Source: a virus. From it: DNA of 64,000 nucleotides. This document shows, one piece after another, positions 17,427 through 56,800 of the stretch. Both the position numbers and the translations under genes were made by a program. The notes beneath the pieces are model-generated. The model worked only from the letters and a program-made list of their open reading frames with translations. It did no database searches and had not been told where the DNA came from. Numbering within the stretch: the first letter of the stretch is position 1; every line of letters begins with the position of its first letter. Where the stretch lies: IMG/VR virus record IMGVR_UViG_3300036981_000377, positions 36,407 to 100,406 of that record; one strand, written 5' to 3'.

Positions 17427-17451
17427 TGCTATCCTTTTGTGTAAAAAGAAA

Positions 17452-17483
17452 CCCGGGCGGCAGCATTATTACTACCGCCCGGG
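17452..17483 (-). terminator. Intrinsic terminator
   Basis: CCCGGGCGG/CCGCCCGGG stem with TTTCTTTTT tail on the minus strand. Confidence 0.75.
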
Positions 17484-17504
17484 CTTATTTAACTGTTTAA
17501 CGAA

Positions 17505-21999: not shown

Positions 22000-22024
22000 G
22001 ATTCCCTTTCTGCGTAAAAAGAAA

Positions 22025-22054
22025 GAGGGCGCCGGGTACAAACCCAGCGCCCTC
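22025..22054 (-). terminator. Intrinsic terminator
   Basis: GAGGGCGC/GCGCCCTC stem with TTTCTTTTT tail on the minus strand. Confidence 0.7.
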
Positions 22055-22088
22055 CGTGGCGTCATTTCTCGCCCGCGTTAAACGTCGC

Positions 22089-22385
22089 TTACCGACGAAC
22101 CGGCTTCACGACCGTCCGCGTAGTCTTGCGCACTACCTTGCCGCCGAAAAGGCGGTTACGGCAGCTCTCAGACGACTGCGAATTGGCACTGTACAGCCGT
22201 GAGTTGCCGCACTGATCGCCAACGCAAATCAGCTGCGGACCGCTCGAGCAATTACCGTCGCAGCAACCACCATTGCACGGGGCGGCAGCTGCTTCCTTGT
22301 TGACCAGCACGCTCTGTGGCTCCGAACCACCGAACGAAACACCGGCCGTCAGAACCACGAACGCAAACGTAAAAACAGAACGCAT
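22089..22385 (-). CDS. Secreted small Cys-rich protein
   Basis: GAGGA SD; MRSVFTFAFVVLTAGVSFG signal peptide; 7 Cys. Confidence 0.7.
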   Translation of the reverse strand: MRSVFTFAFVVLTAGVSFGGSEPQSVLVNKEAAAAPCNGGCCDGNCSSGPQLICVGDQCGNSRLYSANSQSSESCRNRLFGGKVVRKTTRTVVKPVRR

Positions 22386-22444
22386 AGTAGAGTCCTCAAA
22401 AACCAAAAGAAACGTTGCTGACATATCCGTATGCCCGCAATTTG

Positions 22445-28942: not shown

Positions 28943-29338
28943 TTATTTTTGCTTTGCGGCTTTTTTGGCTGGTTTTTGCGGCAACTTTTTTGCGCCCTTT
29001 GGCACAGTTCCGTTAGGTCCGCGCAGCCTATCCTCATTCAACTCCGGCCACATCTTCAGCGAATGAATAGCGCCAACGATGTTCCAAACCGCGTGACCCA
29101 AATCATCTTCGTCACGTTTTCCAGCGAGGAATTCAAAAATATGCCGTAAGGCGTGGTTAATTAGATCCACTGCCGGCATACCGTTTTCCCAGTTAAACTC
29201 GCCAAACTTTTGCGCGCCTTCCGCATATGCGCGGGCTAACGCCTCGAGCCCAACTGGCGAAATCAAGTCGTAGCGGACAGCGTTGCAGTCGGTGCTGCGA
29301 ACGGCGCCGGTTTCATACTTCTTGTACTTGTCGCTCAC
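28943..29338 (-). CDS. dATP/dGTP diphosphohydrolase (DUF5664-like)
   Basis: TGAVR..RYDLI..EGAQKFG..NWENG..HALRH..EDDLGHAVWN. Confidence 0.85.
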   Translation of the reverse strand: MSDKYKKYETGAVRSTDCNAVRYDLISPVGLEALARAYAEGAQKFGEFNWENGMPAVDLINHALRHIFEFLAGKRDEDDLGHAVWNIVGAIHSLKMWPELNEDRLRGPNGTVPKGAKKLPQKPAKKAAKQK

Positions 29339-29615
29339 GATGCTGGTCTTCTATTAGTTCGGGAATAAAGCAAAAATACAATCGAGGATTATGCAGATAA
29401 GCAACAGTTCCTCGAACGCCATCAGCCCGCCGAATAACGCGCACTATCGGATTTTCAAACAAGTGCACGCTAAACAGGTTGTCAAATTCGGCGTCATTCC
29501 AAACTTCTGCGTTATACTTTTCTTGCAGATCAGTCAAAATATCTGCGTCAAGCATACCGAGATAATAACTGCGCAACTTTTCGGCGATTAACGCGTTTTC
29601 GGCGTTTTGGGTCAC
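29313..29615 (-). CDS. Hypothetical protein
   Basis: VW..F..F..P.V.V.RR.DGVRG...H.PR.YF motif. Confidence 0.7.
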   Translation of the reverse strand: MTQNAENALIAEKLRSYYLGMLDADILTDLQEKYNAEVWNDAEFDNLFSVHLFENPIVRVIRRADGVRGTVAYLHNPRLYFCFIPELIEDQHRERQVQEV

Positions 29616-30049
29616 ATCTGTAATCGGCTTAACTCCGCTTTGGTTTCTTCTACTTGCTTTTTCAGCTCTGCAAGTTCGGTTACTGTAGCTTGCAGTTGTT
29701 GCGCCATACTTCCGGCGTCATTATTGAATGTTTTAATTTGCGCGACAAGATCGCGATGCACGTCTACGCCAAAAGCAGCCAACTTACTCATCATTTGAAA
29801 AAGCTGACCAGCGTATGACGGCTTTTCGTTTCGCAAGCGAATTCTGCCGCTTGGTATGCCCGTCATGTTGATAGACCACAGCGGCACAATGGCGATAGCT
29901 TGCAGTTCTGGAATTTGTCCCATCATGTATTCGGAGAACTGATCGGCCTGCATATAAAAATGAATGTCGCAGGGCGGTTTTTCTGACTGAATCGCTGTAG
30001 CCGTTGTCTGGGCTGGCTCAACCATCGGCTCCGATGCTGTTTCGCTCAT
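29612..30049 (-). CDS. Hypothetical protein with C-terminal coiled coil
   Basis: ORF in operon; start re-called at MSETAS. Confidence 0.65.
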   Translation of the reverse strand: MSETASEPMVEPAQTTATAIQSEKPPCDIHFYMQADQFSEYMMGQIPELQAIAIVPLWSINMTGIPSGRIRLRNEKPSYAGQLFQMMSKLAAFGVDVHRDLVAQIKTFNNDAGSMAQQLQATVTELAELKKQVEETKAELSRLQM

Positions 30050-30561: not shown

Positions 30562-30794
30562 TACGTCGCGTACTCATCGCCGAATGGCCACACAACGGTG
30601 CGCCCGGCGTCAGGCGGTGGGTTGCCGTTGGTGGGTCTAACCGCTTCGGTCACTGGAAGCGGCGGTTGTAATTTAAGGGTGTTTGCGGGATTATCGTGTA
30701 AGTAGAGTTGCGGTCCGGGGCCGCGCATAGTTTTGCGGATTCCCGGCTGTCGGCGTTCTTGATATAATTTGGCACTTTTGCTGATGTTTGGCAT
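30561..30794 (-). CDS. Hypothetical Pro-rich protein
   Basis: 77 aa, TAATG coupling to the next gene. Confidence 0.55.
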   Translation of the reverse strand: MPNISKSAKLYQERRQPGIRKTMRGPGPQLYLHDNPANTLKLQPPLPVTEAVRPTNGNPPPDAGRTVVWPFGDEYAT

Positions 30795-30810
30795 TTGACG
30801 CTCGTAAAAA

Positions 30811-30851
30811 TGGCTGGGGCGAGATACGCCTCAGTATACTCACCCCAGCCA
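30811..30851 (-). terminator. Intrinsic terminator
   Basis: TGGCTGGGG/CCCCAGCCA stem with TTTTT tail on the minus strand. Confidence 0.7.
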
Positions 30852-30860
30852 CGGCAACAA

Positions 30861-31043
30861 TTAACTTGCCCGGTCCGAGGTGACGAGCTTAAAAAGCCCG
30901 TAGGTCAACTGACAAATACCAACAGCAAGTGCGCAGACGCCATAAACAAACAGTTTCACGACTAGGCCAACGCCGTCCTCGAGCCACTGCAACTCTGCAT
31001 CGTTTTTACCGCGGTAATAATTTCCGTTCTGGTAGTGACCCAT
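30861..31043 (-). CDS. Small membrane protein divergent from the terminase gene
   Basis: MGHYQNG... with a TM segment; followed by a terminator; its start codon abuts the terminase ATG (CATATG). Confidence 0.55.
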   Translation of the reverse strand: MGHYQNGNYYRGKNDAELQWLEDGVGLVVKLFVYGVCALAVGICQLTYGLFKLVTSDRAS

Positions 31044-32969
31044 ATGACACCCAATTTGTTGCAGGATAACGCGCTGCTGCGTGAACAAAATTTTGAGATA
31101 CCGGACAAAGGTATTCGCCACCTTGTTCAAGAATTGATGAGTATGGACTGCACCGACGCGCATGCTATAAACGCGCGGGCAGGCATATTATCTGAACTCG
31201 CTAATAAACGCTTTTTCCCATCCTTGGAGCCGTTGCTTCCGTTAGTGCTTAATCTAAACGGTAAGCCGTATAACCTATCTGGACATTACCCGTTTGCCCC
31301 ACTTTTCAGGCTGCTTATGCCTAAAAATTTGGTGCTAAAAACAGGTCGGCAGGTTTCTAAAAGTACCTCACTAGCTGCGCACGGCGTTGTGCTGGCCAAC
31401 TGCCTGCCGTTCTTTAAAACTCTGTACATCACGCCGCTGTACGAACAGATTCGCCGTTTCAGTAACAACTACGTGCGATCATTTATTGATCAGTCGCCGA
31501 TCAAAAGTCAGTGGTGCGGCACTGACACTGAAAACAATGTATTGCAGCGTTCGTTTAAGAACAAAAGCATTATGTTGTTTAGCTTTGCTCTTCTTGATGC
31601 TGATCGCGTCCGCGGTATAAGTACTGACCGCGTGGTTATGGACGAGATTCAAGACATGGATCCCGACCACATTCCGATCATTCAAGAAACGATGTCGTAT
31701 AGTCGATACGCGATGCTTCACATGGCCGGGACCCCAAAAAGTCTGGACAACCCGTTAGAGGGCGCCTACAAACGCTCAAGCGGCGCCGAGTGGTTCATTC
31801 CGTGTGAGTCGTGCCGATACTGGAACATACCGTCAATCGATCACGATCTCGATAAGATGATCGGGCCGTACAACATTCACATTAGTGAAAAATATCCGGG
31901 AACTGTCTGCGCAAAATGTCAAAAGCCAATTAACCCGCGTTACGGCCGATGGGTTCACCGCAAAGAAAACCAGCGCTGGCAATTTGCTGGCTATCACGTG
32001 CCGCAGCTTATTTTACCGTTGCATTTTGCGGACCCTGAAAAATGGTCTGCGTTGCTCCTAAAGCGTGAAGGCTTTGGCAACATGACGCAGGCGCAGTTCT
32101 ACAACGAAGTTTTGGGCGAATCTGTTGACGCGGGCCAAAAACTCATTACAGAAACCGAGCTTAAAGCCGCATGCTTGTTAGAGTGGCCAAACAAAAAAGA
32201 ACCAGAACCAGAAATTTTCAACAACATCAAAAACTACAAGCACCGCGTCATGGCCATTGACTGGGGCGGAGGCGGTGACGAGGGTATTTCATTTACTGTT
32301 ATTACAGTTCTTGGTTTTAGATACGACGGCTCAATTGACGTACTCTGGGGCAAGCGGCTCTTACTTGGATCAGAGCACCTAGCCGAAGCAGCCGAGTGCA
32401 TGAAGTGGGCGCAAAGATTTAAGATTGATTACGTAGCGCATGACTATACAGGCGCCGGAACTGTTCGCGAAACCGTAATGGTGCAAGCAGGCTTTAAACT
32501 TGAGCGTGTCATGGCTATTCGCCTTGTCCGAGCGGCTAGTCAGGACGTCATGGTGTTTAAAGAATCTACGCCAATTAATCATCGGCAGCATTACTCACTC
32601 GACAAGACTAGGTCACTGCTGTACACGTGTCAGGCTATTAAGCTAAAACGTGTGCGCTTCTTTAAATATGACTGGGAATCGCAAGACGATCCCGGCCTTA
32701 TTGCTGATTTCTTAGCGCTTGTAGAAAACAAAACAGAATCGCGCATGGGCGGCGACATTTACACAATTACGCGCAATACGCTGCTTAGTGACGATTTTGC
32801 GCAAGCTGTGAATATAGGATGTGCCGCTATTTGGCACATTAACGATGCTTGGCCTAATTTTGCCGAAATAGCCGGCGTAGGCGCGATTAGTCAGCAACAG
32901 GCGCAAGGGCAAAACCCTGAAGACTGGGCAGACGACGACATGGGTGGTCGCTTTTTTGGTCAGCCGTGA
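31044..32969 (+). CDS. terL: Terminase large subunit, GpA-like
   Basis: KTGRQVSKST Walker A-like, VMDEIQD Walker B, GTPK coupling motif, WFIPCESC..CAKC zinc ribbon, FYNEVLG, MAIDWGG RNase H-like nuclease, DDFAQA. Confidence 0.9.
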   Translation: MTPNLLQDNALLREQNFEIPDKGIRHLVQELMSMDCTDAHAINARAGILSELANKRFFPSLEPLLPLVLNLNGKPYNLSGHYPFAPLFRLLMPKNLVLKTGRQVSKSTSLAAHGVVLANCLPFFKTLYITPLYEQIRRFSNNYVRSFIDQSPIKSQWCGTDTENNVLQRSFKNKSIMLFSFALLDADRVRGISTDRVVMDEIQDMDPDHIPIIQETMSYSRYAMLHMAGTPKSLDNPLEGAYKRSSGAEWFIPCESCRYWNIPSIDHDLDKMIGPYNIHISEKYPGTVCAKCQKPINPRYGRWVHRKENQRWQFAGYHVPQLILPLHFADPEKWSALLLKREGFGNMTQAQFYNEVLGESVDAGQKLITETELKAACLLEWPNKKEPEPEIFNNIKNYKHRVMAIDWGGGGDEGISFTVITVLGFRYDGSIDVLWGKRLLLGSEHLAEAAECMKWAQRFKIDYVAHDYTGAGTVRETVMVQAGFKLERVMAIRLVRAASQDVMVFKESTPINHRQHYSLDKTRSLLYTCQAIKLKRVRFFKYDWESQDDPGLIADFLALVENKTESRMGGDIYTITRNTLLSDDFAQAVNIGCAAIWHINDAWPNFAEIAGVGAISQQQAQGQNPEDWADDDMGGRFFGQP

Positions 32970-33190
32970 TTTTCTGTTGGCACCCGCTCGACGATGTCTG
33001 GCGGGCAAACGCAAGACAGAGATCGCCCGTTGTCCCACTTGACTAACAATTGCGTTTGATTTTTTTCGTCGTAAAAATATAGTGGCACAACTTTTAGTAT
33101 TGTGCCCATAGTCCCAGCGGGGACAGGATCAGGGTCATTGGGCATGTGCGCCAACTTGATCCTGTCCCCGCTTTTTACATCAGGAAGCAT
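32960..33190 (-). CDS. DUF4314-like protein
   Basis: GDRIKL..M.NDPDPVPAGT.GT...VKWDNGRSL...D. Confidence 0.8.
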   Translation of the reverse strand: MLPDVKSGDRIKLAHMPNDPDPVPAGTMGTILKVVPLYFYDEKNQTQLLVKWDNGRSLSCVCPPDIVERVPTENHG

Positions 33191-33533
33191 TTTCTGATTC
33201 TTCAGTTTCTTTTTTGCCAGACTGCGCCTGTTCAAGCGCGGCCTGTCCTGTAGGAGAAAGTTCGGCTTCCATTACGCCATCTTCACCAGCATCCGCAATT
33301 AAAAAACCGCGCATAAACAATTGCAGCATTTCACAATTTTGACACATCATGCGTGCCCAATCGCTAATTGCTTGCATGTTCTCTTTCGTCGGCTCCCGCC
33401 CGTTTGCGGCATTAGAGCCAACTACAATTGAAACAAGCATTTGCCCAAAGGCGTCAAGCGCTGGCATTTTTCGCAGCCAGTCAAGAATCTCGCGTCCTAG
33501 TTCTGTATCGTCTTTGGTCTGGTCCATGTTCAC
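33180..33533 (-). CDS. Hypothetical protein
   Basis: 117-aa ORF in operon. Confidence 0.65.
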   Translation of the reverse strand: MNMDQTKDDTELGREILDWLRKMPALDAFGQMLVSIVVGSNAANGREPTKENMQAISDWARMMCQNCEMLQLFMRGFLIADAGEDGVMEAELSPTGQAALEQAQSGKKETEESENAS

Positions 33534-33862
33534 TCCGTAGCGGCGTTCAGTCGAGATTCCGCAATTGCCGCGTCGTACTTGCCACGAGCAAGAATGCGGC
33601 GAACGGCTGCTTCGCGTAGCTTGCTTAAATAATCAGCGTAATTTACGTCTGTGTTTACAACTGCTTCCGCGCTGCTGTACGAGTGCGGCTTGCTGGTCAT
33701 TAAGTTGTCACCAGCTTTCATAATGCGCTGAATAGCGGCTATTTTAACTATTGCGCGCTCATCTTCAAGCCGCATTTCTGCTGCTACAGCTTTTGCATAA
33801 TTTTCAGCGCAATCAGTAATGTTATTGACAAGTTTATGCACAAAAAGTTCTGCAACTGGCAT
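33530..33862 (-). CDS. Hypothetical helical protein
   Basis: Start at MPVAEL after GAGGA. Confidence 0.7.
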   Translation of the reverse strand: MPVAELFVHKLVNNITDCAENYAKAVAAEMRLEDERAIVKIAAIQRIMKAGDNLMTSKPHSYSSAEAVVNTDVNYADYLSKLREAAVRRILARGKYDAAIAESRLNAATE

Positions 33863-33863
33863 G

Positions 33864-34142
33864 CTAGTCCTCTGATGTTCGGTAGTCGATAACGCGGATT
33901 CTGTTGATGTGCGAGTGTTTCTCGCGATAACCAAGTTTTACAAACACAACTGCAATACGGCGATTTGTCTCATCGTACGGATCACCAATAGTTAATTCGA
34001 ATGTCTTGTCAGTCTTATTGACTTTAAAAGCGCTTTGGTTCATGGGTACGCCCCACACACCGTTGTCTTTTAAAACTCGCAGCCAGCTCTCCTGCCAAGC
34101 AATGTCAGCCGGAGTTGGCTCCCACGTTGTCGGTGGTATCAT
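33864..34142 (-). CDS. Hypothetical protein
   Basis: MIPPTTWEPTPAD..W..GVWGVP; start uncertain. Confidence 0.6.
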   Translation of the reverse strand: MIPPTTWEPTPADIAWQESWLRVLKDNGVWGVPMNQSAFKVNKTDKTFELTIGDPYDETNRRIAVVFVKLGYREKHSHINRIRVIDYRTSED

Positions 34143-34380
34143 AAAACGCTTCGCGCTCGTCGCGCTTAGCTTGTAGCTCCTTTCTAGTAAGAATTCGTTT
34201 GGGATATTTTTCGGGATGACACAGCTGGCAGCTTGAGCCGCCGCAGCCAGCGACTCGCAACGATTTTCTAAACCGACCAGTATCGGGCAAGTTGTCGTCG
34301 ACATAGAAAAATAGTTCAAGTTGCCGGCGTATTTTTGCTCGGCGCTTTAAAATGTGTGTTTCTGAGTGGTAGCGTTTCAT
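34105..34380 (-). CDS. Basic zinc-binding protein (CGGSSCQLCH)
   Basis: 91 aa, Arg/Lys-rich. Confidence 0.65.
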   Translation of the reverse strand: MKRYHSETHILKRRAKIRRQLELFFYVDDNLPDTGRFRKSLRVAGCGGSSCQLCHPEKYPKRILTRKELQAKRDEREAFYDTTDNVGANSG

Positions 34381-34382
34381 AG

Positions 34383-34826
34383 TTATGAGTCACAGTAGAT
34401 GACGATCTTACAACCACAACGTCGCGCAAGCTTAATTACTGCGTTGGCGTAAACAGATACAGGTAGCTCCCTATCTATAAATCCGCCGGTGATTAACGCC
34501 TGCAGCCCTAACTGGGCATATCCGCGATTTCTAAGCTCAGGGTCGGTGAAACACTCGACTGTCTGCGCCATTATTTTTTCGCCTTTGAAGCGTTCGGGCC
34601 ACAATCTTGTGCCAACCCACGCCACTAAAAGGCTATTGTGCCACACAAGGGCAATAGCCATTTCTGGGTGCGGGCCGGGTGTAGGGCTTAGATAGCGCTT
34701 TTCGAGTTCTTTTTGAATAGAACTGTCGCTGCCAGAATTCGGCCAAGACAAGCGCGTGTAGATCGCTGTCACGTCGGTAACCGCGAGCTTGTTGATATCG
34801 CGGATACGAATCTCAAATTCGTTCAT
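34383..34826 (-). CDS. GNAT-like acetyltransferase
   Basis: FTDPELRNRGYA resembles acetyl-CoA motif A (V.P..R..G.A). Confidence 0.6.
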   Translation of the reverse strand: MNEFEIRIRDINKLAVTDVTAIYTRLSWPNSGSDSSIQKELEKRYLSPTPGPHPEMAIALVWHNSLLVAWVGTRLWPERFKGEKIMAQTVECFTDPELRNRGYAQLGLQALITGGFIDRELPVSVYANAVIKLARRCGCKIVIYCDS

Positions 34827-34862
34827 GGCGGGCACTCCGTTGCCTACCACTTATTATACGAA

Positions 34863-34935
34863 AGCCGGCGGTCGGACTCGAACCGACGACCTGCTGATTA
34901 CAAATCAGCGGCTCTACCAACTGAGCTACACCGGC
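34863..34935 (-). tRNA. tRNA-Thr(TGT), no encoded CCA
   Basis: GCCGGTG TA GCTCAGTTGGTAGAGC, anticodon arm CTGAT-TTGTA-ATCAG region, T arm GTCGG-TTCGAGT-CCGAC. Confidence 0.96.
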
Positions 34936-34939
34936 AGTT

Positions 34940-35254
34940 TTAATCTACGTCGTCTATGTCGTCTTCAAACTCTTCTTCGTAGATCTCGTCTTCGTCTTCG
35001 TCCTCGTCCTCGTCTTCGTCTTCGTCTGACCACTCAAGGTCGTCGTCGGCATCTAGCTCGTCGTCGTCGTCATCTTCGTCGGCGTACCAGTCTACATTTA
35101 CGCGCGGTGGACTAAAGTCAGAGTCGTCGTCGTCACTTTCTTCGTCGTCGTCTACAAACTGCCAATCTTCGTCAATAAAGTCGTCGTCGTAGCTCTCGTC
35201 TCGGCGTGAGCTGGCGGGTGAATTAACGGAAGGATCAAACCAGTTTGCGGACAT
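34940..35254 (-). CDS. Highly acidic protein
   Basis: About 56 of 104 residues are D/E, no Lys; TAAGGAG SD. Confidence 0.7.
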   Translation of the reverse strand: MSANWFDPSVNSPASSRRDESYDDDFIDEDWQFVDDDEESDDDDSDFSPPRVNVDWYADEDDDDDELDADDDLEWSDEDEDEDEDEDEDEIYEEEFEDDIDDVD

Positions 35255-35264
35255 CTAAAGCTCC

Positions 35265-37895
35265 TTAGCCGGCATTTTTTTCTTCTGTAGTTTTGTAGTC
35301 GCTCCAGAACATATCGCACCACTCACGTTTAATTAAAAAACCCGGCGATTTGTGAACAATCTCTTCTCCACAAAATACGCCTTGTTTTGTAAAACAGTGT
35401 AGCAAAGCTATCCAATTTGGAACAATGCCGGTTTTAATTAAATACGTATCAATTGCTTTACGGCTTAACCACCAATGGTCTTTCCCGCGGACCACGTAAT
35501 TTTGCGACTGCGTTTTAAAGCGGGGCCTCGGCAAAATGTCTATTTTTCCAGTGCAGATAGCTTTGTTTAGCTCTAGCATGAGCGCTTCGTGCGCTGTGTC
35601 TGGCTGCATTATAATTTGCTCTGCAGCGCTAAGATTAAATGTCGTACCGTATGTTTCGTCTAGCCATTTGTGCGCATCTCTAAGCACCGCGGGTAAAAGT
35701 TTTGCGCCGATGGCTCCGAAGCCCATACGTTGCCGCAAGACTCTTTGAATGTACGCCGGCACGATAAATCGCAGTGGCGTGAGGTCTGCTGTAAAGCTAG
35801 GGCAAGCTAGTGGGGCTATTCCCGTCCAACCGTAAGTCAACGCGGCGGGTAAACCAGCCGCCGTAACCTTAAGCAGCACAGGGCGATTAGGGTATCTGAT
35901 TATGCTGCTGGAGATATAGGTGTCGGTTTCGTGCGGCGAATAAATCAAGCTCGGGCCTGCCGCGCTTTTTATTGCTGTTCCGATAGACGTGCGGCTAGCT
36001 TGATATATGGCTCCAATCTCGCTGATGGTGCAGTTAAGCGCTTTGCCGCAGTTAATCGCGCTAGTGTATGCGTCTGAGCGTATTGCAACGCTGGTAGGCG
36101 GAATGTTCAGTATGGGCGCAATCATGTCAGTTAACACGGCTGCTGTGACCGCCCAGACAAACGCATTCTCGTGCGACGGGGTTAGTAGGTTGTGAATCGA
36201 GAGCGGCGCGGCAATGCTGGGCTCCGGGAAATCAAATTGCCGATTGGTCTGCAACTGCGAACATACGGCCGGCGTAATAGCGCCGTCGTTGGTGAGCGAA
36301 TAAGCCGCAAAATGGAACTCGCGTGTTTTGTCGTCCCAGCCCGGGGTGTTTGATACTGTGACTACCGGCGGCGGGTGAAGTCTAAGTGCAATCTCAGTCG
36401 CGCGGGTATCCCATCGCGGGGCGGTAATTACCAATTCGCCACGGGCGGCAAACAACTGCCCGGCGTACGTTAGCAAGCCCACTCGTTCTATGCGCGAGGC
36501 CGGGGAGAAAAACTCTACGATCTGATCGGTCTTTTTTACGTAACCCTCGTAATACTTGTCGCCCTTTTCGGTGTAAATAACGCGGGTAATTACTGGAACG
36601 CAATTTGTTACACACAGGCCGCTTGCCGTAAACCAACCGCCGTCGCGCTCAATTACCTCAAAGTTTACATTTTTGTTCGGCGCAATTCCGTGATGTGGCT
36701 GCACCTGTTCAATAATCTTTATTACGGCTAATTCTGGCAACGCTGTTTTATCTTTTAAGAATTGCTGCAGTTTTTCCCGAGGGACATGCAGCTTAGACGC
36801 AAACGCCACGGCTTCCGTTTGATTTAAGCTGTTCACGTGATTTTCAAGCGTCGTCTGCCACGTTGACGCTGATTTGTATATTCGGCTGAGCTGGCGCATT
36901 GTCTGTACCGGCATTGTCGGCTGCGGCTCTGATACGACATCGGTAACACAGACGTATCCTCTTGAGTTGGCTGCCTGAGAAATAAGTTCCGGCGTAACAC
37001 TGCTGCCTGCAAACATTTTTTTAGTTTGCGGGAAATTGTGCAGTGTAGTTGCGTGGCTTATTGCCTCGTGCCCGATGTAACTAGCGCATACTGGCAGTCG
37101 GGCAGTGTCGTGCCGCAGTTGCGTGATGTGCGTTTTTAAAGCCCAGCACGGGTCGTCAGATATAAATAGCGCCTCGTTAAGCGGCGAGCCAGTCGGTAGG
37201 AGCGCGTTTTGCAACAAAAAATAACCAGAATCAACGCGACGCAGCCGGGTTGCCATATTCGGCACGTACGCTGTTTTTGTTTCTGTTTCTGTTCCGTGCT
37301 GCATAAACAGAAAGCCAGTATGATGATTAGGCAGATCATAATACGGAAACACAATAATCGGGTGCCGCGGGCGCATGTGGCGCGGAAAAGACCGACCAAT
37401 GCTGGCGCAGAATTCAACGCCGCGGGTACCCGGAACAGTGCCTATGAGGCCGAGGCAGGGTATTTCCCGCGATATGCCGTATTCGCGGTATTTTTGCAAA
37501 ATGATATCATTCGCATTAACCCACAGGCTTTCGGCTGCTTCTGTCCAAAATTCATGCGCTGCTCGTTGCCGGTCGTTTAAACGCAAAATATCGGACACGT
37601 CTTCGCTATTTGCCCGACCGGCGACCAGTCCGCTGTCAACTAGCCGGTCGATCGCGGCTGTTATGTCTACCTTCCAGATTTGCGCTGCGAATGTTATGAT
37701 ATTTCCGTGGGCCGAGCAGGTATTGCAGTTTAACCAGATATCTTCTCGGACCGTATTATCAAAAGCGTAAAGTGTCGTCTCCCCACAGAACGGACAGCCG
37801 AGCACGGTAGGAAAAGACGAGTTTTCCACCGAAAGGCCAATAAAGGCTAGCGCGTTCGTGTGGTTGTGGCGGCGGATTATGGAGCTAATTAGCAT
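35265..37895 (-). CDS. Large protein with N-terminal primase-type zinc finger (putative replication protein)
   Basis: CPFC...CNTC..GNIITF resembles the DnaG/CHC2 zinc-binding domain; no clear TOPRIM or Walker motifs seen. Confidence 0.6.
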   Translation of the reverse strand: MLISSIIRRHNHTNALAFIGLSVENSSFPTVLGCPFCGETTLYAFDNTVREDIWLNCNTCSAHGNIITFAAQIWKVDITAAIDRLVDSGLVAGRANSEDVSDILRLNDRQRAAHEFWTEAAESLWVNANDIILQKYREYGISREIPCLGLIGTVPGTRGVEFCASIGRSFPRHMRPRHPIIVFPYYDLPNHHTGFLFMQHGTETETKTAYVPNMATRLRRVDSGYFLLQNALLPTGSPLNEALFISDDPCWALKTHITQLRHDTARLPVCASYIGHEAISHATTLHNFPQTKKMFAGSSVTPELISQAANSRGYVCVTDVVSEPQPTMPVQTMRQLSRIYKSASTWQTTLENHVNSLNQTEAVAFASKLHVPREKLQQFLKDKTALPELAVIKIIEQVQPHHGIAPNKNVNFEVIERDGGWFTASGLCVTNCVPVITRVIYTEKGDKYYEGYVKKTDQIVEFFSPASRIERVGLLTYAGQLFAARGELVITAPRWDTRATEIALRLHPPPVVTVSNTPGWDDKTREFHFAAYSLTNDGAITPAVCSQLQTNRQFDFPEPSIAAPLSIHNLLTPSHENAFVWAVTAAVLTDMIAPILNIPPTSVAIRSDAYTSAINCGKALNCTISEIGAIYQASRTSIGTAIKSAAGPSLIYSPHETDTYISSSIIRYPNRPVLLKVTAAGLPAALTYGWTGIAPLACPSFTADLTPLRFIVPAYIQRVLRQRMGFGAIGAKLLPAVLRDAHKWLDETYGTTFNLSAAEQIIMQPDTAHEALMLELNKAICTGKIDILPRPRFKTQSQNYVVRGKDHWWLSRKAIDTYLIKTGIVPNWIALLHCFTKQGVFCGEEIVHKSPGFLIKREWCDMFWSDYKTTEEKNAG

Positions 37896-39075
37896 GAATA
37901 TGTTAGACCACACGCAAGACATCAGCGGTCGTGAAACCCATCGTCTTCTGTCGCTCTACCCCGCGCCCGACTTTGTTAAAAACGCCAATCATGAGCGCCT
38001 GCATGGCGACCGTGAAAAACTGGCCCGGCATCTTTACGCCGAGCCCTTTAAGCAAATTTACCCGTGTCACACCGCTGCTGCAACATGGATGTCGTCTTTA
38101 TGGTTTGCCGAGAAGCGGGCCGAGTTTGACGATAAGACCGCCGCGGCGGTCGCGGAGCGTCTGGACGCGTCTGCCAAATACTTCGGTATCGGCGGGTTAA
38201 TCGCGGCGTTAACTGAGAAAGTAGCGGCTGACGCGGGCAACGAACTAACCAAGCTATCGGACGAGAGTTTTGCCATTGTTTGGCGGGACGAGGTTGGTGG
38301 GGTGGAGCGGCACTGGCCAATGCGCAACGCGACCGAGGTAAAGTTTGCTGCGGCACACTTTAAGAAATACCGCGACGAGTTTGTCTTTGCTGACCGGCAT
38401 AAAATTGCCAATAATATCTTAGACAAAGCTCTAGAATACGGCGCCGATGTCAGCCCAGCCGAGGGCACGCTTGAGACGACAGCTGGGCGTGGTCTATGCG
38501 CCACAAAGGTCGCAGCGCAGCTTCTACGCGGTCGGGCTCAGTTGACGCGGCGGACGTACGCCAACCTTAGCGCCGAGATGGAAAAACTGGCTACTCTTAT
38601 CGAGGCCAATCCCGGTGAAACGCAAAACGAGGAGTGCCGCTTAAAGCTAGCTTCCGTTGTTGACCAGTTTGATCGCGAGACGAAGCTTTACCGGCTTTAC
38701 GACGACAAGGGCCTAGACCGACCCGAAGACGTTTTGTTTGCGATCACTGAAAAGGTAGCTCGAGACTTTACAAGCGAAAACGTCGAGACCACCACCGGCA
38801 ATGTATATGCGCTTGCCGATCTTGAGAAACTGGCTGTCGAAGACATCCGGTCGTGGATGGGTGACGATTTCGCTTCCGCTATTTCTGCGGGTGGCGTATT
38901 CACAGACCGCGACAAGCTTGCGGCTATTGTCCCCACCCTCGACCGCGGCATGGCTGCTATGCTGGATCGCCTAATGCAGGAAAAGAAGGCATCCCCAGTA
39001 GCCACCAACGCCGCGGCCGAGTCCTTAATGCCGCTGGATCGGCTTTATGACTTAGCCGCTGAGTCCAACACTTGA
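37894..39075 (+). CDS. Hypothetical protein rich in KxA motifs (possible head/internal virion protein)
   Basis: Long plus-strand ORF; GGAG SD before ATG 37894. Confidence 0.8.
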   Translation: MNMLDHTQDISGRETHRLLSLYPAPDFVKNANHERLHGDREKLARHLYAEPFKQIYPCHTAAATWMSSLWFAEKRAEFDDKTAAAVAERLDASAKYFGIGGLIAALTEKVAADAGNELTKLSDESFAIVWRDEVGGVERHWPMRNATEVKFAAAHFKKYRDEFVFADRHKIANNILDKALEYGADVSPAEGTLETTAGRGLCATKVAAQLLRGRAQLTRRTYANLSAEMEKLATLIEANPGETQNEECRLKLASVVDQFDRETKLYRLYDDKGLDRPEDVLFAITEKVARDFTSENVETTTGNVYALADLEKLAVEDIRSWMGDDFASAISAGGVFTDRDKLAAIVPTLDRGMAAMLDRLMQEKKASPVATNAAAESLMPLDRLYDLAAESNT

Positions 39076-39260
39076 GCGCACGTTTCAAGTACGCTTTTTA
39101 GCTGCTTGATCTGCTCTCGCAGCTCAGCCACAGCGTCGACTCGCTCCTCCGCGAGGGTTTTCTCGTACGCAATACAAACGCGCAATTTAATATTCTCTGC
39201 TTGAAGCGTTTCAATTTGAGCGCGATAGCCTTGGCTAAAAACGTTACTCAGTAAACCCAT
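39045..39260 (-). CDS. Small coiled-coil protein
   Basis: AGGAG SD; the start codon lies in a GGA-loop hairpin. Confidence 0.65.
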   Translation of the reverse strand: MGLLSNVFSQGYRAQIETLQAENIKLRVCIAYEKTLAEERVDAVAELREQIKQLKSVLETCAQVLDSAAKS

Positions 39261-39324
39261 CCGTGAGTTTTCTCCTAGGTGTCTTTCCAGTAAACTGCCA
39301 GAAACAATTTTACGGCCAGCTATT

Positions 39325-39546
39325 TTAAGTTGCCGGCTTTGACATCTTCATAGTCGGCGACAGCGCTGCTCGTTGCGCGCTGATGTCAAACTTAAATTTG
39401 CTAATTAGCTCTGTGCGCAATATTGGCACGTCTGGTGCTGTCTCGATGCCGATTTTTACCGCGCCGTTTTTTAGCTCTACTACAGTTATCTTGACGTTAT
39501 TGCCAATTTGAATCGACTCGTTTAACCGCCGCGTTAAAACTAACAC
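39325..39546 (-). CDS. csrA: Carbon storage regulator CsrA/RsmA homolog
   Basis: MLVLTRRLNESIQIGNNVKITVV...VKIGIETAPDVPILRTEL matches the CsrA signature; AAGGA SD, GTG start. Confidence 0.92.
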   Translation of the reverse strand: MLVLTRRLNESIQIGNNVKITVVELKNGAVKIGIETAPDVPILRTELISKFKFDISAQRAALSPTMKMSKPAT

Positions 39547-39556
39547 GTTAATTCCT

Positions 39557-40237
39557 TTACCGATTTAAAGATTCTGAAAGTGTTTTGGTGACATGTTCGG
39601 TCGTGCCGTTTACAAGTTGAACAGCCTGCAACTGCGCTATTAGCATTATCGCTTTTTGCTGCACTATTTTATTGATCTCTTCTGTCTTGCCGGCTTCTAC
39701 GTCATAAATCGCCGCGAACATTTCCGGATCATCAGCAAATTGATTAGCAGCGTCAGAGACGTTGGCTCGCCGCAGCGCTATCCGCAATACGTCTGGCGCA
39801 TTGATGATCCCTTCTTGATCAAGCACAGCGCCGATATAAGCTCGGATCTCTTCGTTGAACGGCTCTGCATTGTCCTCGTCTGGCGGACAGATTAGCAACC
39901 CCTCGGTCAAACCCCACGCTATTTCTGCGCTATCGGCCGGGTCGAACATGTCTGGCCGATACGTGTCGCCGCTCAACACGTTGCACGCTACGATGAAGTC
40001 TGGAAGGCTTTGGTAGAACGTATCCGACGTCAGGATGTTGATCGCCATCATCAGTTTGTCGAACACTGCTTGCGGCAGGTCTACGTCAAATTCTTCTTCG
40101 ACCTCGAGCGTAATGGTTGCAGGATCCCACTGCAGCCCCTCGACGCCAAACCGGTCAAGAAACACTGTCAGCAGGACAATCCCGAACGTCTGCGGGCTTT
40201 TCCACATCTCTTTCAGAATTTTGGCGTCTATCGGCAT
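39557..40237 (-). CDS. Hypothetical acidic protein
   Basis: 226 aa, GAGGA SD. Confidence 0.8.
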   Translation of the reverse strand: MPIDAKILKEMWKSPQTFGIVLLTVFLDRFGVEGLQWDPATITLEVEEEFDVDLPQAVFDKLMMAINILTSDTFYQSLPDFIVACNVLSGDTYRPDMFDPADSAEIAWGLTEGLLICPPDEDNAEPFNEEIRAYIGAVLDQEGIINAPDVLRIALRRANVSDAANQFADDPEMFAAIYDVEAGKTEEINKIVQQKAIMLIAQLQAVQLVNGTTEHVTKTLSESLNR

Positions 40238-40679
40238 GGTGTCCGTTCCTCTGACTAATTTTGCGTTTTCCGCGGTTGTAAAGCTCTAACAGATTATACG
40301 ATATGGTCTCTAAGGGCGGCACCAGCGGCTCCACCACGACCTCGCCGGAGCTGAGGTCTAAAAACCCGCGACCACCAGACCACACGCAATATAGCCCGTC
40401 TACTAAACATATTTGCGTAAACTGCTGTGCCGCTGCGCCCTGCCACGCGGCGGCTGATTCAGTCAAAATTAAAGCGCGTTGCTCTGCCGTTAAATTAATA
40501 TTTTCCAGCATTTCTGCCAGCAGCAGGGCCATCAATAAAACCGGCGCTGGCTCGTCGTCGGGCTCCGGAATTTGCTGGTTTACGGTCGCTAAAATATTGC
40601 GTATCTGCAGCTTGCTGAGTTTAATGACCTCAGTTACCATATGCCATGTGATCAGTTCTTCGTTACTGGAGGTTTCCAT
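40155..40679 (-). CDS. Hypothetical protein
   Basis: Start re-called at ATG 40679 (METSSNEE) after AAGGA. Confidence 0.65.
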   Translation of the reverse strand: METSSNEELITWHMVTEVIKLSKLQIRNILATVNQQIPEPDDEPAPVLLMALLLAEMLENINLTAEQRALILTESAAAWQGAAAQQFTQICLVDGLYCVWSGGRGFLDLSSGEVVVEPLVPPLETISYNLLELYNRGKRKISQRNGHHADRRQNSERDVEKPADVRDCPADSVS

Positions 40680-40953
40680 GCTTTCGATCCTTGACGATTT
40701 AACTCGGCTATCCAACAACCGCGGCGACTTTGTAGTGCAGGGAGATGATATCGAAACGCTAATGGCAGCGTCAACGTCAAACATCGTCTTGCAGAAAGCC
40801 GCTGAACAGGGCTTAAACCGCCCGGGTGTCTCTAACGCTAGCGGACCGTATCCTGTTGACGCGGACGGCAAGTGCGACGACGAACTGATGCTTCGAAAGC
40901 GCGGACCTGTGGTTGGCTACCGGCGCGACTTTGTCGTGCTTGCAGGCCTTTAA
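40678..40953 (+). CDS. Hypothetical protein (MLSILDDL...)
   Basis: GGAGG SD 5 nt before ATG 40678; followed by a terminator. Confidence 0.72.
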   Translation: MLSILDDLTRLSNNRGDFVVQGDDIETLMAASTSNIVLQKAAEQGLNRPGVSNASGPYPVDADGKCDDELMLRKRGPVVGYRRDFVVLAGL

Positions 40954-40986: not shown

Positions 40987-41019
40987 TGCGACACACCCAT
41001 GTGTTTTGGGTGTGTCGCA
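40987..41019. terminator. Bidirectional terminator between convergent genes
   Basis: TGCGACACACCCA/TGGGTGTGTCGCA 13-bp stem. Confidence 0.75.
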
Positions 41020-56655: not shown

Positions 56656-56800
56656 GTTTTTACCTCTCTGCCGCTTATTATACGCAATTTGGCCCGGCCG
56701 CCCGAATTTCTGAGGCTGTTTTATGCGGGCGCGTGACTAGGCCGCTAATAGCTTATCAAAGCGGTGTTTTAACGGGTAGTGCTGCAATGACGGTTGTTTT

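Follow-up and report, generated by a model that had tools for sequence, protein, structure and literature searches.

Genes transcribed against their neighbours are known from several settings, among them the noncontiguous operons on which Saenz-Lahoya et al. are said to have reported in 2019. Such operons, an extreme form of the excludon, have been reported in Staphylococcus aureus and in the temperate staphylococcal phage 80alpha (PMC11034616), while excludons, described in Listeria, have been reviewed (PMC7154746) and ExcludonFinder is presented in PMC12288877. Divergent overlaps between genes make up 0.9% of short overlaps, and 73% of them are of the CATG or 'AT' type (bioRxiv 10.64898/2026.09.10.750558); a survey of 58 genomes counted 331 divergent overlaps among ~15,000 (PMC2174442). 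Here we describe three start-start junctions in a 64,000-nucleotide stretch of viral DNA (the window), corresponding to positions 36,407-100,406 of the 100,406-bp IMG/VR virus record IMGVR_UViG_3300036981_000377 (CheckV completeness 49%). At each junction a plus-strand gene, coding for the large terminase (terL), for a 393-amino-acid (aa) protein here called KxA or for a highly conserved 91-aa protein, begins back-to-back with a minus-strand gene, and comparison with relatives indicates that this layout is real, very old and conserved.

Start codons and conservation of the three junctions

At the terL junction (CATATG, 31041-31046) the start codons of terL (31044-32969, plus strand, 641 aa) and of a 60-aa gene (30861-31043, minus strand) abut with 0 nucleotides (nt) between them. 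At the other two junctions a CATG makes the opposing start codons share 2 nt, joining KxA (37894-39075, plus strand) to an 876-aa zinc-ribbon gene (35265-37895, minus strand) at 37893-37896, and the 91-aa gene (40678-40953, plus strand) to a 174-aa gene (40155-40679, minus strand) at 40677-40680. A sequence-only reading of the window had pointed out these junctions, together with a GGAGG Shine-Dalgarno (SD) site for the 91-aa gene (40668-40672, plus strand) and an AAGGA site for the 174-aa gene (complement of 40688-40692, minus strand), and all of them are present at the positions it gave. It had also placed all six starts in frame with open reading frames (ORFs), and that these are real genes is borne out by their conservation in relatives and by substitution patterns of the coding type.

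The comparison of N-termini that the same reading had proposed supports the starts themselves. In tblastn searches, conservation in IMG/VR relatives begins at residue 1 for each of the six proteins, and the alignments show coding-type variation with in-frame insertions and deletions (indels) adjoining the starts. Every in-frame ATG, GTG and TTG around each of the six starts was tabulated across relatives, and in each gene just one of these, the proposed ATG, occurs in all of them (for terL, it is the sole start kept in 15 lineages). The 60-aa gene is preceded by a stop codon 1-5 codons upstream of its ATG in five relatives, and neither the second ATG of KxA nor an upstream ATG of the zinc-ribbon gene is conserved. 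Taken together, the comparative evidence indicates that the starts of the six genes are the true ones, with the qualification that the 174-aa gene has a second in-frame methionine, Met13, present in 31/37 lineages and absent in 6/37, which could serve as an alternative start.

True starts lying well downstream and leaving ordinary spacers, which the sequence-only reading had named as fatal to its proposal, or small partner ORFs that are not genes, would give the junctions a trivial explanation, and both Met13 and an in-frame ATG at terL codon 32, present in about half of the relatives, could be cited in its favour. However, the shared or abutting ATG is the sole universal start in each of the six genes and several lineages lack the downstream candidates; alignments of the proteins begin at residue 1 and contain in-frame indels, and the small plus-strand gene is called at 81-92 aa independently. 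Moreover, use of Met13 would still leave a spacer of only 37-46 nt. We therefore regard misplaced starts as highly improbable, indeed as the least probable of the explanations weighed here, and for the terL and KxA junctions they are already largely excluded.

Counted across the contig and its relatives, as had also been proposed, the junction spacings are 0, -2 and -2 nt in the contig for terL, KxA and the 91-aa gene, respectively, and are mostly kept in relatives. The terL junction reads CATATG in 15 of 16 relatives (71-99% TerL identity), the exception (L027) being CAT-AGAT-ATG with a 4-nt spacer. The KxA junction was compared in 66 distinct loci (36-98% KxA identity): 56 have CATG, a count that required a minus-strand ORF of at least 250 codons in frame, one has CATATG, and nine, which form a clade at 41-45% identity, have spacers of 11-30 nt. 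At the equivalent position of a 229-kb contig whose KxA is only 34% identical, a GTG start abuts the ATG. At the 91-aa junction, 24 of 37 loci have CATG, the remaining ones carrying in-frame minus-strand ATGs that overlap by 11-17 nt. For three distant single homologues (P0021, P0132 and P0091) no loci were found in viral or metagenome contigs.

The layout also sets these three genes apart within the genome. When the full 100,406-bp contig was searched with a third-order Markov gene caller that uses dynamic programming, the same six starts were selected and 113 genes called, nearly all of them on the minus strand (~110), and the only confident plus-strand genes were terL, KxA and the 91-aa gene. 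Three single plus-strand genes thus oppose a tightly packed minus-strand array (median same-strand spacing 14 nt, overlaps at 25/105 junctions), which is the orientation expected of a noncontiguous operon, and their convergent 3' spacings are -10, -31 and +85 nt. Apart from the homologues of these three, a complete 205-kb relative (G005) has just one confident reversed gene, a 222-aa accessory gene (region 29229-30003). Between this gene and a neighbouring PhoH-like gene lies an ordinary, AT-rich divergent spacer of ~105 nt, meaning that the lineage uses normal divergent promoter regions elsewhere.

The window phage belongs to an uncultured lineage of ~200-kb phages from freshwater, runoff and sediment samples, in which relatives reach 197-229 kb, and all of the 13 sequencing runs that hold it are DNA metagenomes from these sources. 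A search of GenBank phages gave no nucleotide match for the junction region, and the nearest GenBank terL, that of Salmonella phage Arash, is 31% identical and lies in a different gene layout. The frequency of CATG in the genome is ordinary (241 observed versus 217 expected), and for this reason CATG as a restriction or methylation target was rejected.

Conservation of CATG alone does not prove that the overlap is useful, since every substitution within it destroys at least one start codon. The junctions could thus be the frozen outcome of neutral compaction: purifying selection on both ATGs would lock the CATG in place, no benefit being needed, both genes would be expressed from embedded signals, and the overlap would have no regulatory consequence. 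Consistent with this, the genome is tightly packed throughout and CATG is not over-represented in it; the clade with 11-30 nt spacers and the relative with 4 nt indicate that exact overlap is not obligatory; and short overlaps are evolutionarily labile, with CATG forming 73% of the divergent ones in 3,998 bacterial genomes (bioRxiv 10.64898/2026.09.10.750558). On the other hand, all three conserved reversed genes share the layout, whereas the accessory reversed gene of the 205-kb relative keeps its spacer, and even in the relaxed lineages the spacer is at most 46 nt, too little for two promoters. In addition, however it arose, the geometry entails a long antisense overlap, and the conserved extended -10 elements found far upstream of the reversed genes (see below) would imply long antisense leaders. 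We consider frozen compaction a serious alternative, if on the whole an unlikely one, to the explanation that we prefer, namely single reversed genes embedded in long operons.

Signals inside the partner coding sequences

With no room between the genes, initiation signals can be placed in coding sequence only, and, unless the messages are leaderless, the lack of intergenic space makes the 5' parts of the two messages complementary, as the sequence-only reading had held. Its stronger statement, that each promoter and ribosome-binding site must lie inside the partner gene, stands in part: the ribosome-binding signals do fall in partner codons, but the best promoter candidate for terL lies beyond its partner. 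The GGAGG of the 91-aa gene is located within codons 3-5 of the 174-aa gene; its GGAG is kept in 37/37 lineages despite indels, and its SD strength is in the genome's top 5%. The SD sites of KxA and of the 174-aa gene are conserved as well, with a strength of about the genome median. The SD strength of the zinc-ribbon gene is near random background, as is that of terL, for which no SD site can be identified in any of 16 relatives. The SD score of the 60-aa gene is likewise near background; it has a G-rich SD-like site, GGGTG (31048-31052, minus strand), that is encoded by terL codons 2-3 and kept as GGTG, AGGTG or TGAGGG in all relatives; terL position 2/3 is always Pro or Ser.

Between the KxA and 91-aa junctions, the phage encodes a CsrA homologue (39325-39546, minus strand; TIGR00202, E-value 1.7e-16, short of the curated cut-off). 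As CsrA proteins recognise GGA motifs in leaders, this homologue could act on the embedded SD sites.

A scan for pairwise conservation of synonymous codons shows constraint peaks where partner signals are expected. The first 20 codons of terL are that gene's top window (ratio 1.50; mean 1.0, standard deviation 0.12), codons 1-15 of the 174-aa gene reach 1.61, and codons 49-68 of the zinc-ribbon gene (1.57), the highest of 868 windows, contain the -10-like element TGTTATGAT discussed below. Two further peaks lie within the plus-strand genes. Codons 56-75 of the 91-aa gene (40843-40903, plus strand; ratio ~1.5), with a peak in codons 61-75, are GC-rich and not promoter-like, and codons ~156-177 of KxA (38358-38420, plus strand), its strongest window at 1.36, have no recognisable motif; the latter lie 470-530 nt upstream of the zinc-ribbon start on the opposite strand and could be an internal signal.

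The lack of an SD site before terL in 16 relatives and the near-background scores of the 60-aa and zinc-ribbon genes would also be compatible with leaderless translation, in which one or more of the messages would start at the A of the ATG, need no upstream signal and overlap by only 0-2 nt; in two distant relatives a -10-like hexamer is indeed found 7-9 nt before the terL ATG. However, neither the window nor most relatives have a -10-like hexamer at -12 to -7, the SD sites of the 91-aa, KxA and 174-aa genes are conserved, and the synonymous constraint in terL codons 1-20 and in the first codons of the 174-aa gene is what would be expected of a partner's leader. Leaderless messages are, in our view, very unlikely here.

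The candidate promoter for terL is a perfect extended -10, TGATATAAT (30760-30768, plus strand), located 276 nt upstream of the terL ATG, beyond the 60-aa gene and within the following minus-strand ORF. No other TGnTATAAT exists on either strand of the 64-kb window, and the prior chance that a single such site would fall on the plus strand at most 300 nt upstream of one of the three plus-strand genes is ~0.7%. At the homologous position (-244 to -329), 10/12 relatives retain a TGnTAnnnT, against ~1 expected, the variants being TGATATAAT, TGGTACAAT, TGATATATT, TGCTATACT, TGATACAAT and TGGTACAGT, and the choice of AAA and TTR codons at the element preserves the A and T positions of the hexamer. 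This candidate predicts a leader of ~270 nt that, starting beyond the 60-aa gene, would be antisense to the entire 60-aa gene and its terminator.

The latter is a predicted intrinsic terminator directly after the 60-aa gene (30803-30852, minus strand), made of a hairpin at 30810-30852 (minimum free energy -34 kcal/mol, z -6.2 versus shuffles) followed by a U-tract (AUUUUU), and would mark the end of a transcription unit. Many gaps on the minus strand share one design, in which a GC-rich hairpin is succeeded by TTTTTAC(A/G)C, an AAGGA-type SD and the start codon (ATG) of the downstream gene, with terminator and next ribosome site fused within ~30 nt (for example at 17427-17504, 22000-22444 and 30795-30860).

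The candidate for KxA, the extended -10-like TGTTATGAT (37692-37700, plus strand), falls within zinc-ribbon codons 65-68 and precedes the ATG of KxA by ~195 nt. Its hexamer is TAT[GC]AT in 51/67 loci, versus 1-4/67 in control stretches, and a rare ATA isoleucine codon is retained there even at 22% protein identity. An extended -10 precedes the 91-aa gene, at -46 to -68, in only 13/37 lineages. On the minus strand inside the plus-strand genes, no conserved extended -10 faces the minus-strand partners. The best match of a sigma-70 pattern scan of 30-42 kb, a TTGACG-18-TATCAT that lies within the 91-aa gene and points towards the 174-aa gene, was dropped, being neither conserved nor under synonymous constraint.

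Sigma-70-type signals are clearly in use elsewhere in the phage, with TATAAT and TTGACA found in true intergenic gaps, for example TTGACA-N16-TATGCT before 43390. The 17-nt sequence CGTATAATAAGYGGYAG occurs twice (34844-34860 and 56668-56684, both on the minus strand; 0.07 expected), in both cases 18-26 nt ahead of the start codon of a minus-strand gene, and is likely a phage promoter type built on a perfect TATAAT; for the motif TGTTATGATAT no further copy was found in the window. Sigma-70 region 2 (PF04542) is absent from three phage genomes of the lineage, and PF00940, sought in a search for a phage RNA polymerase or sigma factor, was matched nowhere, including control genomes, and is uninformative. 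An Rfam scan of the 29-43 kb region detected a tRNA-Thr only.

Possible transcription of the reversed genes

The explanation towards which we lean, though only somewhat, is that single reversed genes are embedded in long operons, in the manner of a noncontiguous operon or an excludon. The genes for terL, KxA and the 91-aa protein would represent three ancient single-gene strand reversals wedged into long same-strand arrays. The ATG of each is shared with, or abuts, that of the neighbouring array gene, and in two cases there is a convergent overlap as well. The ribosome-binding sites sit within the first codons of the partner. At 195-280 nt upstream, within minus-strand genes, the reversed genes appear to possess extended -10 promoters of their own, whose leaders would be antisense to the partner, i.e., to the whole 60-aa gene in the case of terL and to roughly the first 60 zinc-ribbon codons in that of KxA. 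As no comparable conserved promoter is found inside the reversed genes, their partners probably depend for the most part on transcripts that cross the reversed gene in antisense. Collision of polymerases and cleavage of double-stranded RNA would then cause the two directions to interfere with each other.

The asymmetry of the promoters, together with the lack of a terminator or spacer at two of the three convergent ends, fits a noncontiguous operon. At its 3' end terL overlaps a 61-aa gene (32960-33145, minus strand) by 10 nt, a spacing that in relatives is -10, -4 or 0, or is replaced by the insertion of another gene, and KxA overlaps a 71-aa gene (39045-39260, minus strand) by 31 nt. The 91-aa gene has an 85-nt 3' spacer in the window, versus 0 to -37 nt in other relatives, and is followed by a 13-bp hairpin and a short T-run (40987-41019, plus strand) in the close clade of the window only. 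Each reversed gene is thus a single gene with practically no non-coding DNA to either side. Sequence comparison establishes the genes, their starts, the conserved layout, the SD sites in partner codons, the synonymous constraint and the existence and conservation of the promoter-like and terminator elements, whereas transcription start sites, read-through and any mutual repression are inferred.

Besides the constraint that CATG places on itself, several observations weigh against embedded operons of this kind. The candidate -10 elements of terL and KxA sit in conserved protein motifs (K-L-Y-Q and I-I-T, respectively), and part of their conservation is therefore due to the protein. In the KxA element the TG occurs in part of the family only, the largest clade lacking it, and the element can be read as a -10 on both strands. 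A scan of 30-42 kb with sigma-70 promoter and terminator patterns gave matches no more frequent than in shuffled sequence. Furthermore, untranslated antisense RNA of 1.2-1.9 kb is normally a target of Rho-dependent termination, and read-through into the partners may thus be inefficient; the partner genes may instead use promoters that are not recognisable here.

The interlocked starts could in addition form a lineage-wide timing device, in which early and middle transcription of the long minus-strand operons would pass in antisense through terL, KxA and the 91-aa gene and silence them, and the leaders issuing from the embedded promoters would then shut off the partners. This extension is distinctly unlikely in our estimate. 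Were it true, packaging and two core functions would be switched on by promoter competition, without a dedicated regulator, and the 60-aa membrane protein would be the gene most tightly anticorrelated with the terminase.

Gene products and comparison with known systems

The sequence-only reading had further proposed that the junctions may separate replication functions from packaging and head functions, a division that the gene products do not support. Only terL has a packaging role (phrog_675, E-value 3.6e-55; PF05876). Its partner is a small membrane protein with an ELQWLEDG motif and a hydrophobic helix (52-97% identity in relatives). KxA and the 91-aa protein have no informative match in Pfam, PHROGs, NCBIfam, the ESM Atlas, Foldseek searches against PDB and BFVD, or VIA-align. 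The 'primase-like' label of the KxA partner is based solely on sub-threshold matches of residues 33-97 to a CHC2-type zinc ribbon, the other ~780 residues having no match in Pfam, PHROGs, NCBIfam or a PDB profile search; the N-terminus of this 876-aa protein is conserved from Met1. Finally, virion and replication genes share the same strand.

The KxA family is very large, with 1118 clusters at 50% identity, is found only in uncultured phages and has no assigned function; KxA homologues align from residues 1-5. KxA has no tblastn match in 50,697 GenBank phage records, and its AlphaFold2 model, although very confident (predicted local distance difference test score, pLDDT, 95), resembles no solved fold, the best match being a helical bundle with Z 5.2. 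It is essentially always found head-to-head with a zinc-ribbon protein of ~880 aa. The 91-aa protein, which carries a GPYPVD motif, is unusually conserved for a small phage protein, with 29 invariant columns in 29 sequences (66-81% identity); independent gene calls place it in 207 clusters, all of 81-92 aa and nearly all of 90-92 aa (66-82% identity). Its alpha/beta model (pLDDT 83) has no PDB match.

Start-start overlaps of divergent genes are generally set aside as annotation errors or curiosities, whereas here comparative data fix both starts, and the start-start state is kept across a large, wholly uncultured group of ~200-kb phages and involves the terminase gene. Gene callers that penalise divergent overlap or require a promoter gap would mis-start these genes. 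If the predicted antisense leaders exist, the lineage would provide a clean natural test of the extent to which coding sequence can carry transcription and translation signals, and of noncontiguous-operon or excludon logic in the timing of phage DNA packaging.

CATG start-start overlaps, excludons and noncontiguous operons are already known, and the phage layout is of a known kind. What is new are the surveys of 66 and 37 lineages, the start-codon table and the scan for synonymous constraint, as well as the unique, conserved extended -10 upstream of terL, the terminator framing the 60-aa gene and the asymmetry of the promoters. As in bacterial CATG overlaps, where opposite-strand ATGs share the central AT, the junctions of the window join real opposite-strand genes at shared or abutting ATGs that are the true starts (Met13 being an alternative for the 174-aa gene). 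In contrast with the bacterial cases, the layout here recurs three times in a large phage genome of lytic type: it involves each of the conserved reversed genes of the lineage, terL among them, persists at protein identities as low as 36%, and concerns single reversed genes, two of which also overlap their convergent neighbour.

The likeness to excludons lies in divergent neighbours of which one has a long 5' leader antisense to the other, a form that the predicted ~270-nt leader of terL would have. Classical excludons are pairs with opposing functions that transcriptomics shows to be mutually exclusive, whereas the present pairs are known from sequence alone and only terL has an assigned function. 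With noncontiguous operons the phage shares a gene oriented against the surrounding array, whose mRNA would be fully complementary to an operon transcript. Noncontiguous operons are defined by long-read RNA data, whereas here co-transcription is suggested by the missing spacers, terminators and conserved internal promoters; compared with those described, the zero-length divergent junction of this phage lineage is more extreme.

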